Assembly: GCA_041659905.1 (NCBI GenBank)
Contig: JBAZXK010000002.1
Location: forward strand, 201,832-265,831
Direction of reading: 5' to 3'
DNA: 64,000 bases
Source of the DNA: Patescibacteria group bacterium
Lineage (GTDB): Bacteria; Patescibacteriota; Kazan-3B-28; UBA10110
The notes under the pieces are model-generated. The model was not told where the DNA came from, did not search any database, and saw only the letters and a list, made by a program, of their open reading frames with translations. Shown piece after piece: positions 20,354 through 45,747 of this stretch (positions within the stretch are counted from its first letter, which is position 1; each line of letters opens with the position of its first letter). The translations under genes were made by a program, and so were the position numbers.

Positions 20354-23300
20354 ATGAATAATGCTTTCAAAAAGATGACGCGGGCAATTGCTTGGTTGGC
20401 AACAGCCAGCTTAACCGTGGGTTTCGCTATGATGCCCAGTGGTGCAGTTGCTCAAACGGTCTATAAGTATGAATGGGTCCGCCAGAGTGGCACCATTAGC
20501 GCAGATCAGTTAGCTCATGAATACCAAGGGGTAACCGCGGGCCAAACTATTCCTCTGTCGTTAACGATGATTAACCGGTCTGGCACAACCATCAAAGGCA
20601 AATCGGCTTTGCCGGTTGGCACCAAGCAAGTTCCGGTCGGTGTCTGGGGCATTGGTACTCAGAACCCACAGGACGGCACGCCTTCCTTCTTAGATTTGTC
20701 CAGCTTTGTGCTGAACAATAACCGGTTTGTTTACTATGACGGAGCCGATGTTCCTAACGGAGGTGAAATTACCTTCACTTGGAATATTAAAATGGCTGCG
20801 AGTCTCTCTAACGGGACTTACAAATTATATGTAAGACCAGTCAGTGAGTTCTTGGCCTGGACTCGTCAGGTCAAGAATGGTATCACTTTACCGGGTACCA
20901 ATTCTGATATCTTCTGGCAGTTTGTAGTGGGCAGTGGTGTTTCTACTGCTCCTACTGGCGGTTTGTCGATCGTTTTAGCGGGCGACACCCCAGCTGCTTC
21001 TAGCATTGCCGATGCCGGGCAAGCTAACTTCACTAAATTCACCATGACCCCTGCATCCGGAGCCACTGTTTTGGTTAATCAGCTCTTTGTGATGCGTGAC
21101 GGTCTTTCTACTGATACTCAATTAGAAAATGTTAAGCTGTTAAATGCTGACGGAGTACAAATTGGGAGTACAGCTGGTGGATTTAATGCTGATCATCGGG
21201 CTCAAATCTTTATCAATCCAGCGTTGAGTTTAACTGGTTCGCAGTCCTTCTATCTAAGGGCCGGAGTGGTTAACGCTACTGATGCTGGAGTTACCTTTAG
21301 ATTAGGTCTTGCCACTAACGATGCGGTGGTGTCTAATGCCACATCAGTTACTGGTGCACCAGTCTGGGGTAACTTTATGACGTGCGTACAGGTAGCCATT
21401 GGTACTATTACTGTCACGGAAGATGGTTCTATCTCTGACAGCACCCCAGATGTGGGTGATAAGGATGTCATTTTGAATACTTTCAAATTGACAGCCGGTT
21501 CTGTCGAAGGATTTGTAGTTGACAGAATTACTGTCCTCAAGGCTGGTACTGCCGAAACGGCCGATGCTACCAATATTGAGTTGTGGGATGTGACCAATAA
21601 TAAAAGCTTGGGAGAACAAGCCGCTTGGACATCAGATGGTAAAGCTTCTTGGGCGGTCAATCTTGCCTTAGGCAAGGGCGATACCATTCGCTTACGGGTA
21701 CAAGCAGACATCGTTGACGGTGTCGGCTTAACCATAAACTGCGACATCGCTGATGGCAGTGATTACTTGGTCTTCGCTAGGGGCACAACCTATGGATTCT
21801 ACGTTACTCCTAGTGCTTCCTGGACAGCCGATGCTGGCACAGGTGGAACTAACAATGCTGGTCAAGGTGACAAGAACCAAACCATTAACTCAGGTTCCGT
21901 CACCGTTTCCAAGAGTGCTCTCACTCCCGCCACTGGTAATATTGCCATAGCTGATAGTCAGCTCCTGGCGGTATTTGCCTTTGACGTTAAGGGTGAGCAG
22001 GTCAGAATTAGCGCGGTGCACGTTGATGCAGCCGTGACTGATGTCAGCGCTGGCACTCCAGCGGCTGATGCTACCGATCTCACTAATGTTCGTTTAGTTG
22101 ATATGGCGACCGGAAATATTCTGTCTGGACCAGTTGATGGTACAGCAGACAGTACTGATCCGGATGAGGAATTAGACTTTACTAATACCTTTACTTTGCC
22201 AGTCGGCGTTAGTAATGTTGGCGTAAAAGGTCGTTGGGTGCTGCTTCTGGAACTGATGGTTTTGAAGCTACTGACACCCTTTCCTTCTCGATTGATGCTG
22301 CTGGTCAGGTATCCGTTAAGGGTATTATTACCAACAACACAATTACTCCTACCATCTCTGCTGCTTCTAGCAACACCTTGACTGTCAAGGCAGGGTCAAT
22401 GACTATTGAAACCTTAGGCCAGCCGGCTACAGGAAGTATAGTGGTCAATACTCAAGATATGGTAGTAGGTACTTATGCATTCAACGCGGTAGCGTCAGGT
22501 GAAGACCTGATCGTATCTGCCTTCACCGTAACTGACGATATGGATGCAACTACTGGAGAAAGCGACGACTTTGTCAACTGGCAATTGTGGGCCGATTTAA
22601 CTTCTGGCACCACTTCTCCTCGCGGAGATGTCTATGAAACGCCAATCTCTGGTACGGAAAATCCGACCAGTGATGCTGCTGACAGTACTGATACCCAAGC
22701 ATTCACCTTCACTACTCCTATAACCGTGCTTAAGGGCACGAGTGTAAGAGTTGTGTTAGTGGCTGATGTGGCTTCTGGTGCAACCGCTAATGGTACTCAT
22801 ATCTTTGAGACTGCTAGCGCCACTTTTGCTACCGTAACCGGGAAAGATACCGGAACGGATGTCGCTGAAGGTAGTGCTGGTTTGTCAATCAACGCTACTT
22901 TGACGATTGCCGCCAATGGTAGTTTGACCAGCGCATTAGCTGCCAGCACTCCTGTTACTGGTCTCATGGTGGCGAGCGCAATCACTACTTTAGGGGCTTT
23001 TGATCTGATTGCTTCTAATGAAGCCTACACAGTGACCAAGCTTTCCTTGGATTTCACAGCTGGTTATGACTCATTGGATACAGTAAAAATCACTTATCCA
23101 ACCAAGACAGGAACAGATACTCGCGAAATCTCACTTTCCACTGCCGCCGCTACCTTCGACAACATCAACATGTATGTGCCGAAGAACGGTCGCGCTACCT
23201 TCACTGCTACTGGTGTTGGTAAAAAGGTGGGTACTAGTGGTACAGGCGGAACCTTCGACGACACAATTACTTGTATCTTCGACAACTCTGCTGCCGGCGA

Positions 23301-24126
23301 ATTTGCGGCAGTGGGAGAAGGCTCTGGTGCTGCCTTAACTGGTTCGGATATTTCCGATCAGACGGCTGCTAGTATGTTCCTCTATAACTCAGTTCCGACC
23401 ATAGTTTCGAGCAATCCTTCTTCAGTCGGAACCATTGTGCCGGGCGGTACTATTAACTTGTATAAGTTTAAAGTTACTGCCGACGCGGCTGGTGCTGTGG
23501 CATTGAAGTCGTTCCACTACTCAGTCTTCATTACAGATGCGAGCACGACGACGGCTTCCGCTGCGGATTTGACTAACTTTACCATTCTTCGGGATGGTAC
23601 GGATATCACTTCCAGCGCTCAAATCACTGAGGTGTCCAGCAACGGTTCTAGCTTTATTGCTACTCCGTTGACTTTGGAAGCGACCAACTACATTGAAAAC
23701 AACGTTTCGGCTTGGGTTCAAGTAGCGTTTGGTCAAGATCCTGACGGTACTGACACTGAGCAGGTTATATCTGCGAACCAAACTGTGGAATACACCTTAC
23801 GGGCACAATGCGGCACTGGCTTTACCACTACCGATGCGATCTCAACTAACTTGTTGCAAGATACAACCGATGCCACCGCTCTGGCTTACTACCTGAGCGA
23901 TGCTGATACTGGCACTGGTGTTGAACAAGTAGTTGCCTTGCAAAAGGCTGATGGTACCCAGTTCACTACTGCGACTGGTGTTCACTTGATTTGGTCAGAT
24001 CGTTCCACTGTCATTCATGTAGCGAGCTTTGATGACGATGGTACTACCGAAACCTCCAGTGCTGACTGGACCAACGGTTACCTAGTCAAGAGCTATCCGT
24101 TATCGGCTTATGGTTATACGCTTTAA
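20354..24126 (+). CDS. Large (~1260 aa) S/T/G-rich secreted surface protein, interrupted by an apparent frameshift near 22225-22245 (track splits it into 20354-22381 and 22234-24126)
   Basis: Signal peptide MNNAFKKMTRAIAWLATASLTVGFAMMPSGAVAQT. The frame-1 tail RWVLLLELMVLKLL... is out-of-frame read-through. Frame 2 continues the same sequence style. The C-terminal ~250 aa are paralogous to 44302-45747. Confidence 0.55.
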
Positions 24127-24184
24127 GGCGCTAAACTATTTGTTGATCTTCTGGTAGTTCAGATCATTGCCTGAAATGCAAACC

Positions 24185-44086: not shown

Positions 44087-44301
44087 TTAATAAGTTCAAT
44101 AAGGCGTAAATCTTGAATAGAACGTTCGCTGCGGCCATACCAGTGGCTGACAATGGTTTTTTTATACTCCTAAATCAGTATAAACTCAAATCCGGGTTTA
44201 TGGGGTTGCTTTGCTTATTTTGTTAAAAAATAAGCTCTGACTAGTAGCGAGAACCTAGTCGCATCCCTGGTATTCTATCTTTTCTTGGTGTAGATTAGGA
44301 A

Positions 44302-45747
44302 TTGTTATACCAATTTATATTAATAGTTATGGCTAAGAAGAAAAAATCCACAGAATTCAACAGAATTCTGTTATATGGCGTGATTATAATAGCTCTGATC
44401 ATAGTGGGCTATTATGGGTTCAAATCAGTTTCCGGTTCATCTGCGGCTAATCTTCTAAATTTGGGCGGCGGTCTTCCGGGGAATGTAACCAATGTTGATA
44501 TAACGCCGCAATCTGGCGATGTGACCGCAACTTTGGCTGCAGATTCGCCTGCGGCATATATAGTATTGGGGAACCATCAATACTATGATGCGGCCAAGTA
44601 CAAGTTTTCCGCTACTGGCTCGGGTTTCACTGTGCAGAAGATAGCTATAGTTATACCTACTCATGGATGGGCGTCTGTAGATACATTGAAAATAGAGTAC
44701 CCGCTGAAAACTGGCCAGATTGTATCAAAAGAGATAAGTGTTTCGGCAGAGAAAAGTAAGTTTGAAGGCTTAGCTATGTATGTGCCGAAAAATGGCAGCG
44801 CAGTGATGAATCTGAAAGCTACATTTAAGAAAGTAGGCACAATTGGGGAAGGTGGTGAATTCAGGGCTCATATTAAATTTGGGTTAGCTTCCGGGGTTAC
44901 TGCGGGAGATTTCTTAGCCACATCGGATGGCGGAGGAGTTATAGATACTAAGGCTGCTACCCAGAACATTTTTTCCGCAGAGCATGTGCTCTATAATAGC
45001 ACACCTATAGTAACCGCTTCTAACCCTTCCGGTAGTGGCACGATTGTGCCGGGTGGCATCATTAATCTCTATAAATTCAAAGTATCAGCCGACACGGCCG
45101 GTGAAATAGCAATAAAAAAATTCACTTTCTCTATCTTTATAACAGATGCCAGTACTACCACTCCCTCAGGTGCCGATTTGACTAATTTTACTTTTCTACG
45201 GGGTGGCACAGATATTACTGCCAGTGCCCAGATTACTATGGTGTCGAACAATGGTTCTACCTACATTACTACTCCGTTAACCTTGGAAGACACGAACTAT
45301 TTGGAGAACAATACTTCGTATTTGGTACAAGTAACCTTTGCCAACACTCCGGCAACGGATGCGAATGGTGAGCAATCGATCGGAGCTGGGCAAACAGTGG
45401 AATATACTTTGCGAGCACAGTGCGGAACTGGTTTCACCACAACTGATGCTATTTCCACTGCCTTATTGAGCGATCAAGCTGTAGATCCAGGCATTGGGTA
45501 CCCTGGTGGATATGTGTATCTAACCGATTTAGATTCCGATGTGGGAAAACAACAAATCATTGGGTTGCAGAAAGCCAATGGTACGCAGTTCAGCGGATCA
45601 ACTAATTTCGTCTGGTCTGATAAGTCTGTCTTGATTCATCTACCCACCTTCGATGACGATGGTGTAATAGAAACCTCCAGTGCTGATTGGACTCAAGGAT
45701 ATCTGGTAAAGAATTTCCCATTGTCTGTCTACGGATATACTCTATAG
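44302..45747 (+). CDS. Surface protein paralog (481 aa) sharing the C-terminal ~350 aa with the 20354-24126 protein
   Basis: N-terminal TM. LYNSTPIVTASNPSGSGTIVPGGIINLYKFKV...RAQCGTGFTTTDAIST...ETSSADWTQGYLVKNFPLSVYGYTL is near-identical in pattern to the C-terminus of 22234-24126. Confidence 0.6.
   Translation: MLYQFILIVMAKKKKSTEFNRILLYGVIIIALIIVGYYGFKSVSGSSAANLLNLGGGLPGNVTNVDITPQSGDVTATLAADSPAAYIVLGNHQYYDAAKYKFSATGSGFTVQKIAIVIPTHGWASVDTLKIEYPLKTGQIVSKEISVSAEKSKFEGLAMYVPKNGSAVMNLKATFKKVGTIGEGGEFRAHIKFGLASGVTAGDFLATSDGGGVIDTKAATQNIFSAEHVLYNSTPIVTASNPSGSGTIVPGGIINLYKFKVSADTAGEIAIKKFTFSIFITDASTTTPSGADLTNFTFLRGGTDITASAQITMVSNNGSTYITTPLTLEDTNYLENNTSYLVQVTFANTPATDANGEQSIGAGQTVEYTLRAQCGTGFTTTDAISTALLSDQAVDPGIGYPGGYVYLTDLDSDVGKQQIIGLQKANGTQFSGSTNFVWSDKSVLIHLPTFDDDGVIETSSADWTQGYLVKNFPLSVYGYTL

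Follow-up and report, generated by a model that had tools for sequence, protein, structure and literature searches.

Members of the Candidate Phyla Radiation (CPR), or Patescibacteria, make up a big share of bacterial diversity. They are mostly episymbionts, and the envelope is their site of contact with hosts. The DNA described here is a stretch of 64 kb (hereafter the window) from an uncultured Patescibacteria group bacterium with a small genome (assembly GCA_041659905.1, contig JBAZXK010000002.1, positions 201,832 to 265,831). It contains two paralogous surface proteins, one large and one small, which bracket about 20 kb of glycan genes; next to the large one lies a gene for a membrane protein of the Wzy_C/WaaL superfamily, a candidate O-oligosaccharyltransferase which may glycosylate it. 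The upstream neighbourhood (NDK, MerR, MnmA, sigma factor, DUF5667) is that of a candidate division Kazan genome. Two public proteins from a Patescibacteria metagenome-assembled genome (MAG), P0001 and P0159, are 100% identical to proteins of the window; P0159 is annotated as 'O-antigen ligase family protein'. Window proteins were scanned with Pfam at E<=0.01, and statements of absence on locus genes cover the scanned open reading frames (ORFs) of the whole 64 kb. From relatives, 50 loci were retrieved, some of them with a closer alignment (A1) of the surface-protein family; these were annotated with phmmer, jackhmmer and hidden Markov models (HMMs) of the window proteins, plus Pfam where available. 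The features are listed in Table 1.

Table 1. Features of the island, followed by large surface-protein genes elsewhere in the window (TM, transmembrane segment; TPR, tetratricopeptide repeat; a single number is the position given for the gene)
Feature	Position	Strand	Remarks
ECF (extracytoplasmic function)-type sigma factor	18140..18688	+	Pfam Sigma70_r2, Sigma70_r4_2
Single-pass membrane protein with DUF5667	18987..20087	+	Candidate anti-sigma factor; one TM, residues 79-97
Large S-layer-like surface protein	20354..24126	+	1257 aa after 1-nt repair; intact ortholog P0015 has 1269 aa
Perfect palindromic hairpin	24184..24213		13-bp stem; 3' of large gene
Small membrane-anchored TPR protein (TPR193)	24289..24870	+	193 aa; Pfam TPR_16, TPR_2, TPR_1; N-in single TM, TPR outside (predicted topology)
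WaaL-type ligase, Wzy_C with C-terminal TPR (Wzy_C-TPR)	24877..27126	+	Candidate O-oligosaccharyltransferase; 12-TM core and 13th helix
Mini-paralog	27151..27726	+	191 aa; N-in membrane anchor, ectodomain of one beta-sandwich module; no Pfam or NCBIfam match
Hairpin	27796..27818		10-bp stem; closes the TPR193, Wzy_C-TPR, 191-aa group (putative operon)
Three nucleotide-sugar genes	28673..31730	+	Conserved core in L008, L031, L033, L047, L048
wecB-type UDP-GlcNAc 2-epimerase (Epimerase_2)	28673	+	wecB TIGR00236, 263.6 (cutoff 210)
Short Polysacc_synt_2 dehydratase (PseB/FnlA-like)	29860	+	FnlA 223.8 (cutoff 730), PseB 261 (cutoff 408)
RmlD-like reductase	30813	+	305 aa; rmlD 53 bits
Variable glycan-assembly part	32329..44086		Gene content differs between relatives
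Unknown protein	32329-33075		248 aa; no Pfam or NCBIfam match
Methyltransferase	33214		Pfam/NCBIfam
Alpha/alpha-toroid-like N domain, TM and C-terminal GT4	33982-36429		815 aa; weak squalene-cyclase, pectate-lyase and GH127 matches in N domain
Tail-anchored eukaryotic-type kinase-like (APH/Pkinase-like) protein	36365-37906	-	Pfam
GT4 glycosyltransferase	37921	-	Pfam
AAA_33 P-loop kinase domain and methyltransferase	39293-40546	-	Pfam
GT4 glycosyltransferase	40675		Pfam
Wzx flippase (Polysacc_synt)	41866	-	122 bits
Methyltransferase	43364	-	Pfam/NCBIfam
Small paralog	44329..45747	+	472 aa; N-terminal TM anchor, Ser/Gly-rich linker, C-terminal ~410 aa in common with large protein
Surface protein with Big_1/invasin-like domains	95-5902		1935 aa; Pfam
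Surface protein with three LTD stretches and fn3	7050-9344	-	764 aa; Pfam
Surface protein with Big_5/DUF11/DUF7927	58811-64000+		>1730 aa; Pfam; extends past window end

The relationship between the two bracketing proteins is far above chance. ORF 22234-24126 (630 aa) and ORF 44302-45747 (481 aa) share 219 identical residues out of 414 (53%, E 2e-134), and both end in ...YGYTL. The small paralog probably starts at the ATG at 44329 (MAKKKK...), as in P0001, and is a truncated version, anchored in the membrane, of the C-terminal third of the large protein. Both are rich in Ser, Thr, Gly and Ala (T 14.1, S 8.8, A 11.9 and G 9.6% in the large protein, about 44% in sum; T 11.2, S 8.7, G 10.8 and A 9.1% in the small one) and almost Cys-free (0.3% in the large protein). 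The initial annotation of this DNA, made from the letters alone, had described both the C-terminal paralogy and this composition correctly. The first flanking protein is not one intact ORF: the frame breaks near 22229-22234, where a single T is absent from cgtTTggg relative to the orthologs P0012 and P0015. Frame 1 turns to nonsense after ...VGVKGR; the two orthologs continue uninterrupted (GVKARLAAASG...). The repaired protein has a signal peptide (by inspection) and an N-terminal region of about 200 aa which is specific to the clade. Residues ~200-1257 are homologous to a wider family and form a conserved body of about 1050 aa made of beta-sandwich modules. Its internal repeats are too diverged to be detected by BLAST or by a single-module HMM, and neither paralog contains a Pfam domain.

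Close relatives of the flanking proteins are few, and a word-indexed search found only 13. The family itself is large. A profile search covering 1.84 billion representatives gave 1437 representative clusters at E<=1e-3, of which 853 reach E<=1e-10, and members occur in Kazan, Peregrinibacteria and other Patescibacteria. Most have 1150-1300 aa, typically about 1200-1270 aa, with the shared region at the C-terminus; the large gene of the window is thus the typical form of this big, Pfam-less family. N-terminal anchors are present in 33 of 79 long representatives: 23 have PG_binding_1 and ten have three SLH domains. One SLH-bearing member comes from a Peregrinibacteria MAG. Since N-terminal SLH or PG_binding_1 domains recur in the family, its members can be considered wall-anchored surface proteins with exchangeable anchors, which is the architecture of S-layer proteins. 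By these anchors the large-protein family looks S-layer-like, and the amino-acid composition also resembles that of S-layer proteins. The protein of the window has neither an SLH nor a PG_binding_1 anchor.

Two observations concern the reach and diversity of the family. Three MAGs labelled 'uncultured Gammaproteobacteria' (L017, L018 and L019) contain the module at ~27% identity, with sigma factor, DUF5667 protein and large protein followed by TPR and/or Wzy_C; these MAGs are either mislabelled or misbinned, or else the family reaches beyond the CPR. In L044, a 1541-aa family member is preceded by a bAvd-type gene (1130-1516), which is placed between those for the ECF sigma factor and the DUF5667 protein. 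bAvd is an accessory protein of diversity-generating retroelements, and its presence hints that some family members may be targets of such elements.

A compact module of three genes follows the large gene on the same strand. It encodes TPR193, the Wzy_C-TPR protein, whose start lies 751 nt after the large gene, and the 191-aa mini-paralog. Spacers of 6 and 24 nt separate these genes, and strong hairpins are found on either side (24184-24213 and 27796-27818); for these reasons the three genes probably form an operon, to which neither the large gene nor the sugar genes belong. The first hairpin likely marks a transcript boundary; it is a putative terminator without a T-tract on the + strand. The large gene is probably a transcription unit of its own. 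TPR193 and the 191-aa protein are predicted to be single-pass, N-in membrane proteins with their domains outside. Among the downstream neighbours of family members TPR193 is the best conserved, and it is kept even where Wzy_C is absent (L039 and L050). A relationship between the 191-aa protein and the repeat modules of the large protein is seen with hhalign (alignment A4 versus A2; probability 85%, E 6.7e-6) and with the family HMM (E 9e-6). The gene for the 191-aa protein is conserved beside Wzy_C in the clade; it is mostly directly downstream, and upstream in the Kazan locus L048.

The protein encoded at the centre of this module is a member of the Wzy_C/WaaL superfamily. Wzy_C (PF04932) matches residues 211-361 with 64.3 bits (cutoff 31.7, E 1.4e-17). 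A profile of 36 homologs (A5) matches the WaaL structure 7tpg_B with E 3.3e-17, profile positions 208-410 being aligned to chain residues 175-377 of 413; phmmer against the PDB returned TPR proteins only, and WaaL was found by the profile alone. The AlphaFold2 (AF2) model, built with database homologs, is of high confidence (predicted local distance difference test, pLDDT, 92; predicted template modelling score, pTM, 0.89) and consists of nine TM helices, the catalytic loop and four further helices. In a Foldseek search its sole membrane-protein match was 7tpg_B (TMt 0.59, probability 1.00). Residues R282, R294, D341 and H344-N345 (DRAHN-x9-G-xx-G) are conserved in 23 of 24 Wzy_C copies, and alignments A3 and A5 show little or no variation at R225/R282/R294 and H344-N345. 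The conserved Arg/Arg/His appear to correspond to R215, R288 and H338 of E. coli WaaL. These residues are reported to be essential in WaaL and conserved in PglL (PMC3643930). The TPR domain comprises about 290 aa, and the fourth helix after the loop (444-483) continues into it. In the 12-TM structure of WaaL the loop is followed by three helices, which fits the end-points of the alignment; because there are four in the model, the TPR domain should lie on the catalytic, outer side.

The three nucleotide-sugar genes downstream of the second hairpin are predicted to make a UDP-2-acetamido-2,6-dideoxy-L-hexose of the L-FucNAc, L-QuiNAc or L-RhaNAc type. Two pathways of this kind are FnlA/B/C (= CapE/F/G) for L-FucNAc and WbvB/R/D for L-RhaNAc and L-QuiNAc. 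As in both, genes for a dehydratase/epimerase, a short-chain dehydrogenase/reductase and a wecB-type 2-epimerase are adjacent. FnlB/CapF has two domains, whereas the reductase of the window (305 aa) is simply RmlD-like and in type is nearer to WbvR. The genes which follow the trio vary from genome to genome (L011, L031, L033, L047, L048), as in hypervariable glycan loci. The protein encoded at 33982-36429 has an unusual combination of domains. The kinase-like protein at 36365 and the kinase-methyltransferase fusion at 39293 recall kinase/methyltransferase chain terminators such as WbdD; this is a loose analogy without sequence similarity, and a comparison of the 36365 protein with WbdD-type kinase/methyltransferase terminators gave only weak eukaryotic-kinase matches. 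The initial annotation had assigned everything between the paralogs to envelope glycan machinery, and most of this stands: Pfam or NCBIfam support the TPR protein, Wzy_C, the nucleotide-sugar genes, Wzx, three methyltransferase domains and two kinase-like domains. Three ORFs have no family in either database (27151-27726; 27857-28513 on the - strand or 27785-28120 on the + strand; 32329-33075), and instead of 'at least 4' glycosyltransferases three GT4 domains are supported (33982, 37921 and 40675).

Gene order ties the enzyme to the large surface protein. The order ECF sigma, DUF5667, large protein, small TPR, Wzy_C-TPR, 191-aa protein, Epimerase_2, Polysacc_synt_2 and RmlD-like reductase is conserved in the window and in L007, L008, L010, L011, L013, L016/L032, L028, L029, L031, L033, L047 and L048 (the last from a Kazan genome), and a looser form is found at 27-31% identity in L017, L019 and L037. 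Wzy_C is present within 2.5 kb and on the same strand in about 14 of the 17 non-redundant large-form loci with enough downstream DNA, and the large protein-TPR-Wzy_C arrangement recurs down to ~27% identity. A reciprocal search gave a similar picture: of three distant Wzy_C-TPR homologs (<=28% identity), two adjoin a family member. These are P0181 (28% identity) and P0189, whose neighbours match the family HMM with E 7e-103 and 1e-132, respectively; the third, P0188 (L045), has no family member in its vicinity and belongs to a nonulosonic-acid cluster. A tandem array of four Wzy_C-TPR genes starts with P0189 (L046, 3306-12786); the four have 25-28% mutual identity, all retain the catalytic residues and come right after one family member. 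Four divergent copies in tandem are hard to reconcile with a polymerase role.

Some loci were of less use or show other features. Three modules from MAG JAHITC01 (L010, L013 and L016) could be read as three copies in one genome; this was rejected as evidence because four variants, all with sugar genes of their own, occur in one metagenome, and co-binned populations are equally likely. Downstream of a family member, L017 has a PMT_2 gene (14002-15702; GT-C, protein-mannosyltransferase/ArnT-like) with a Wzy_C gene on either side; two types of extracytoplasmic glycosyl transfer are thereby present in one module.

The sigma factor and DUF5667 genes upstream belong to the same conserved neighbourhood. 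An ortholog of the ECF sigma factor precedes the large protein in L007, L011, L013, L017-19, L030, L032, L033, L044, L047 and L048, and the DUF5667 gene sits between the two in most loci which reach far enough upstream. The DUF5667 match of the window protein (24.8 bits) is slightly below the cutoff of 27, and no known anti-sigma domain was detected in it; position and topology make it a candidate anti-sigma factor. The pair may control the large gene.

The small paralog lies outside the conserved unit, and the arrangement in which two paralogs flank the island is peculiar to the genome of the window. Where a relative's sample has both the large and the small form, the two are on separate contigs. 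Mid-size forms of the family (783 aa in Kazan; other forms of 790 aa) have no Wzy_C neighbour. For the small paralog, AF2 gives a model (pLDDT 68) with three tandem beta-sandwiches at residues 63-380, whose fold matches are generic Ig-like or cohesin-like modules; the most conserved part, the tail (WSD..H..FDDD..SSxDW), is modelled at low confidence.

From these data we favour, tentatively and at somewhat less than an even likelihood, a locus of the S-layer glycosylation (slg) type, in which a dedicated O-oligosaccharyltransferase glycosylates the adjacent large surface protein, a role which has been proposed for WsaA/WsaB and WsfB. In the cytoplasm, the three GT4 enzymes would assemble a short oligosaccharide on a polyprenyl-phosphate carrier, using UDP-sugars which include the 2-acetamido-2,6-dideoxy-L-hexose of the Epimerase_2, Polysacc_synt_2 and RmlD-like trio. 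The methyltransferases and the two kinase-type proteins would add O-methyl and phosphate groups to it, and Wzx would move it to the outer face of the membrane. There the WaaL-type enzyme would transfer it en bloc from the lipid carrier to Ser or Thr (or Tyr) of the surface protein. The outward-facing fused TPR domain and the membrane-anchored TPR193 would hold the protein acceptor, which the mini-paralog may help to dock. Part of the argument is one of elimination: a CPR bacterium is not expected to have a lipid A-core acceptor, the window encodes just one ligase-type enzyme, and no Wzz or CpsC/D chain-length regulator, LCP ligase, Wza or second Wzy-type gene was found in it. Wzx together with a single ligase-type enzyme fits the logic of oligosaccharide transfer. 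In layout and in pathway content (three sugar genes, three GT4 domains, Wzx and three methyltransferase domains) the locus appears to be of the slg kind; an initiating transferase within the locus is the part of that kind which it lacks. Genes for O-oligosaccharyltransferases often adjoin those of their acceptors, as was found for 21 of 31 pglL homologs in one survey (PMC3643930).

Several findings weigh against this reading. Glycosylation is deduced here from genes; the large protein is a putative glycoprotein and a plausible candidate for an S-layer protein. The gene is split by the frameshift in the present assembly. The PglL_A motif, which distinguishes PglL enzymes from WaaL, is not matched in the Wzy_C-TPR protein in the Pfam scan, and none of the NCBIfam ligase or oligosaccharyltransferase models matches it either. 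Of the proposal in the initial annotation that Wzy_C acts like PglL or PilO, the WaaL-type assignment and the place beside the large gene (~14 of 17 loci) are therefore what stands; PglL-family membership is not established, since the motif is absent. No initiating phosphoglycosyl transferase (Bac_transf, Glycos_transf_4/MraY-like) was found in the scanned ORFs; one is present in the distant locus L044. TPR193 and the TPR domain of the enzyme share generic TPR similarity only (E 0.003 over 42 aa), a match which gives no support to a specific common origin. Within the close clade, surface gene, ligase and sugar genes always occur together, so synteny cannot say there which of the others is the partner of the ligase. 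Orthologs of the small paralog lie between genes for PBP1A and trigger factor/ClpP, without glycan genes. The idea that both paralogs are the natural acceptors is accordingly reduced to the large one, conserved beside the ligase; the pair as such does not organise the locus, and its occurrence elsewhere without glycan genes, named at the outset as grounds for doubt, applies to the small member. Finally, a Wzy_C neighbour is present in nine of nine non-redundant loci with the N-terminus of the window type, and PG_binding_1-type loci (L034, L039, L050) have no Wzy_C within 7-10 kb downstream. This pattern fits a glycan which anchors the protein at least equally well, or may be mere shared descent.

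That alternative is the strongest one, and we consider it rather unlikely. In it, Wzy_C-TPR polymerises and/or ligates a wall- or membrane-linked glycopolymer, an analogue of secondary cell wall polymers (SCWPs), and the ~200-aa N-terminal module of the large protein binds this polymer non-covalently. Such pairs are familiar: SLH proteins pair with pyruvylated SCWP, and Caulobacter RsaA with O-antigen. Wzy_C follows the N-terminal module not only in the loci just described (nine of nine with both TPR and Wzy_C in the window type) but also in the mid-size and small forms, which have neither; yet the correlation comes from few independent lineages, and distant loci with other N-termini (L017, L019, L037, L046) keep Wzy_C. 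The module itself has no recognised carbohydrate-binding family in Pfam. The small TPR protein, which stays by the surface gene without Wzy_C in L050 and L039, may serve the protein rather than glycosylation; on the other hand, a separate TPR protein together with an outward TPR domain on the enzyme suggests a protein partner. Neither an LCP ligase nor a chain-length regulator is found in the 64 kb, nor is there another polymerase or ligase, and the four divergent tandem copies behind one surface gene in L046 are unexpected for a polymerase. There is precedent in Bacillus anthracis, where polymerisation or ligation of SCWP is the proposed role of WpaA and WpaB (PF13425, in the clan of Wzy and WaaL), whose depletion disturbs S-layer assembly (PMC6030368). 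A second precedent is Caulobacter, whose S-layer attachment needs O-antigen according to a reference cited in PMC12647753.

A fuller version of the glycosylation reading is doubtful, and we hold it unlikely as a whole. It makes the family the S-layer protein of the CPR; in the clade of the window the layer would have two or three components, be O-glycosylated by a WaaL-derived oligosaccharyltransferase which recruits its acceptor through outward-facing TPR domains, and be under its own ECF sigma/anti-sigma pair. The outer layer would, with the same low likelihood, consist of the secreted ~1250-aa protein, and the membrane-proximal base of the TM-anchored small paralog and/or the 191-aa mini-paralog. 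A layer of two or three components would be comparable to SlaA/SlaB in Sulfolobales.

It is improbable that the island is an ordinary Wzx/Wzy exopolysaccharide or capsule locus, with Wzy_C as the repeat-unit polymerase and with its place beside the surface gene due to a general clustering of envelope genes. The window is dense in surface proteins (95-5902, 7050-9344 and 58811-64000+), so that chance adjacency would not be rare, and the position of the small paralog is not conserved; the order of large protein, TPR and Wzy_C-TPR nevertheless holds in ~14 of 17 loci and to ~27% identity, and the reciprocal search agrees. Pfam Wzy_C includes some polymerases, a Wzx flippase is present (Polysacc_synt, 122 bits), and the L045 homolog lies in a nonulosonic-acid cluster away from any family member. 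Against this, the enzyme has the WaaL ligase motif; its gene is part of a compact, hairpin-bounded group with those of TPR193 and the 191-aa protein, to which the sugar genes do not belong, and the 191-aa partner is itself related to the surface protein. Neither a Wzz/CpsCD-type regulator nor export or attachment machinery was found in the window. That the locus is decaying, with the large gene a true pseudogene, the module idle and only the small paralog functional, is highly improbable: one base is absent at ~22229-22234 relative to orthologs and the L007 copy of the large gene is heavily fragmented, but artefacts of assembly or population commonly leave a lone 1-nt indel in a MAG consensus, both halves of the gene are highly conserved without further stops, all partner genes are intact, and the fragmentation in L007 reaches neighbouring genes, which suggests sequencing error.

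Other parts of the window contain features apart from the island. The region from 58.4 to 64 kb was considered as non-coding and this was rejected, as it is occupied by a giant gene running past the window end. Just outside the island (49494-51925), a gene for an MBOAT acyltransferase is followed by one for a DUF1574-like protein; together they are reminiscent of AlgI/DltB-type systems, which O-acylate a surface polymer. Positions 56335-56411 on the - strand encode a tRNA-Pro whose anticodon is AGG, and tRNA-Pro(CGG) is also present, at 47792. An A at position 34 (A34) is unusual in bacteria outside tRNA-Arg. A TadA-like deaminase gene (MafB19-deam/dCMP_cyt_deam_1, 126 aa) lies at 48168-48548 on the + strand, 8 kb from tRNA-Pro(AGG), and the two may point to expanded A34-to-inosine decoding. 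Beside the tRNA cluster is a stand-alone RNase H/RVT_3-like gene (56743-57171). No Rfam families other than tRNAs were found in the window.

In the literature searched, no paper was found which names an S-layer protein or a system for protein glycosylation from the CPR. If the favoured reading is true, the family is a widespread candidate surface-layer protein of the CPR with swappable SLH, PG_binding_1 or other anchors, and the locus is the first candidate for protein O-glycosylation machinery in this group, with a WaaL-type enzyme to which an extracytoplasmic TPR is fused. The order sigma, DUF5667, large protein, TPR and Wzy_C-TPR would then be a genomic signature for metagenome searches. 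Acceptor-specific O-oligosaccharyltransferases are also of practical interest, for glycoconjugate production. If the protein is instead anchored by a glycan, the locus still represents a new pair of surface protein and anchor glycan.

The closest known systems are the slg loci of Geobacillus stearothermophilus and Paenibacillus alvei. In G. stearothermophilus NRS 2004/3a, sgsE lies near wsaA and wsaB, the genes for a TPR protein of 168 aa and a Wzy_C enzyme, respectively; in P. alvei, WsfB combines Wzy_C with a C-terminal TPR (PMC2943079). The window has in common with these loci a monoderm-type envelope, a nearby surface-layer gene which is apparently transcribed separately, and either a small TPR gene directly upstream of Wzy_C (as WsaA/WsaB) or a Wzy_C with C-terminal TPR (as WsfB), a likeness to the published layout. 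Nucleotide-sugar genes, glycosyltransferases and methyltransferase(s) are also common to both (PMC2943079). It differs in its phylum (Patescibacteria/Kazan), in an unrelated acceptor family without a Pfam model, in having both a fused and a separate TPR, in the mini-paralog within the putative operon and in the upstream ECF sigma/DUF5667 pair. Export would be by a Wzx flippase where slg loci use Wzm/Wzt, the 64 kb contain no initiating enzyme of the WsaP type, and the predicted sugar is of the 6-deoxy-L-HexNAc type, not rhamnose.

Other relatives are found among ligases of diderms and in B. anthracis. As with PilO/TfpO beside pilA and PglL beside pilin or ComP, the Wzy_C enzyme is encoded just downstream of the presumed acceptor, in the same orientation, and the R/R/H residues are conserved (PMC3643930). 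The presumed acceptor is a ~1250-aa wall protein, not a pilin, and PglL_A is undetected; the enzyme has a 13th TM helix and ~290 aa of TPR, and no outer membrane or lipopolysaccharide is expected with which glycans could be shared. With WaaL of Cupriavidus metallidurans (PDB 7TPG) it shares the 12-TM core, the extracytoplasmic catalytic loop, the Arg/His residues and H-N-x9-G-xx-G; TM13 and the TPR are additions, the genomic partner is a surface protein, and a lipid A-core acceptor would not be expected. In B. anthracis, WpaA and WpaB are likewise membrane proteins of the ligase/polymerase clan in a monoderm and are tied to S-layer assembly (PMC6030368). They belong to PF13425 and the enzyme of the window to PF04932; csaB, tagO/tagA and LCP are absent here, and the large protein lacks the SLH domains which some of its homologs have. 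The logic we infer is a familiar one; new are the phylum, the putative acceptor family, the combination of fused and separate TPR, the mini-paralog and the sigma/DUF5667 pair.

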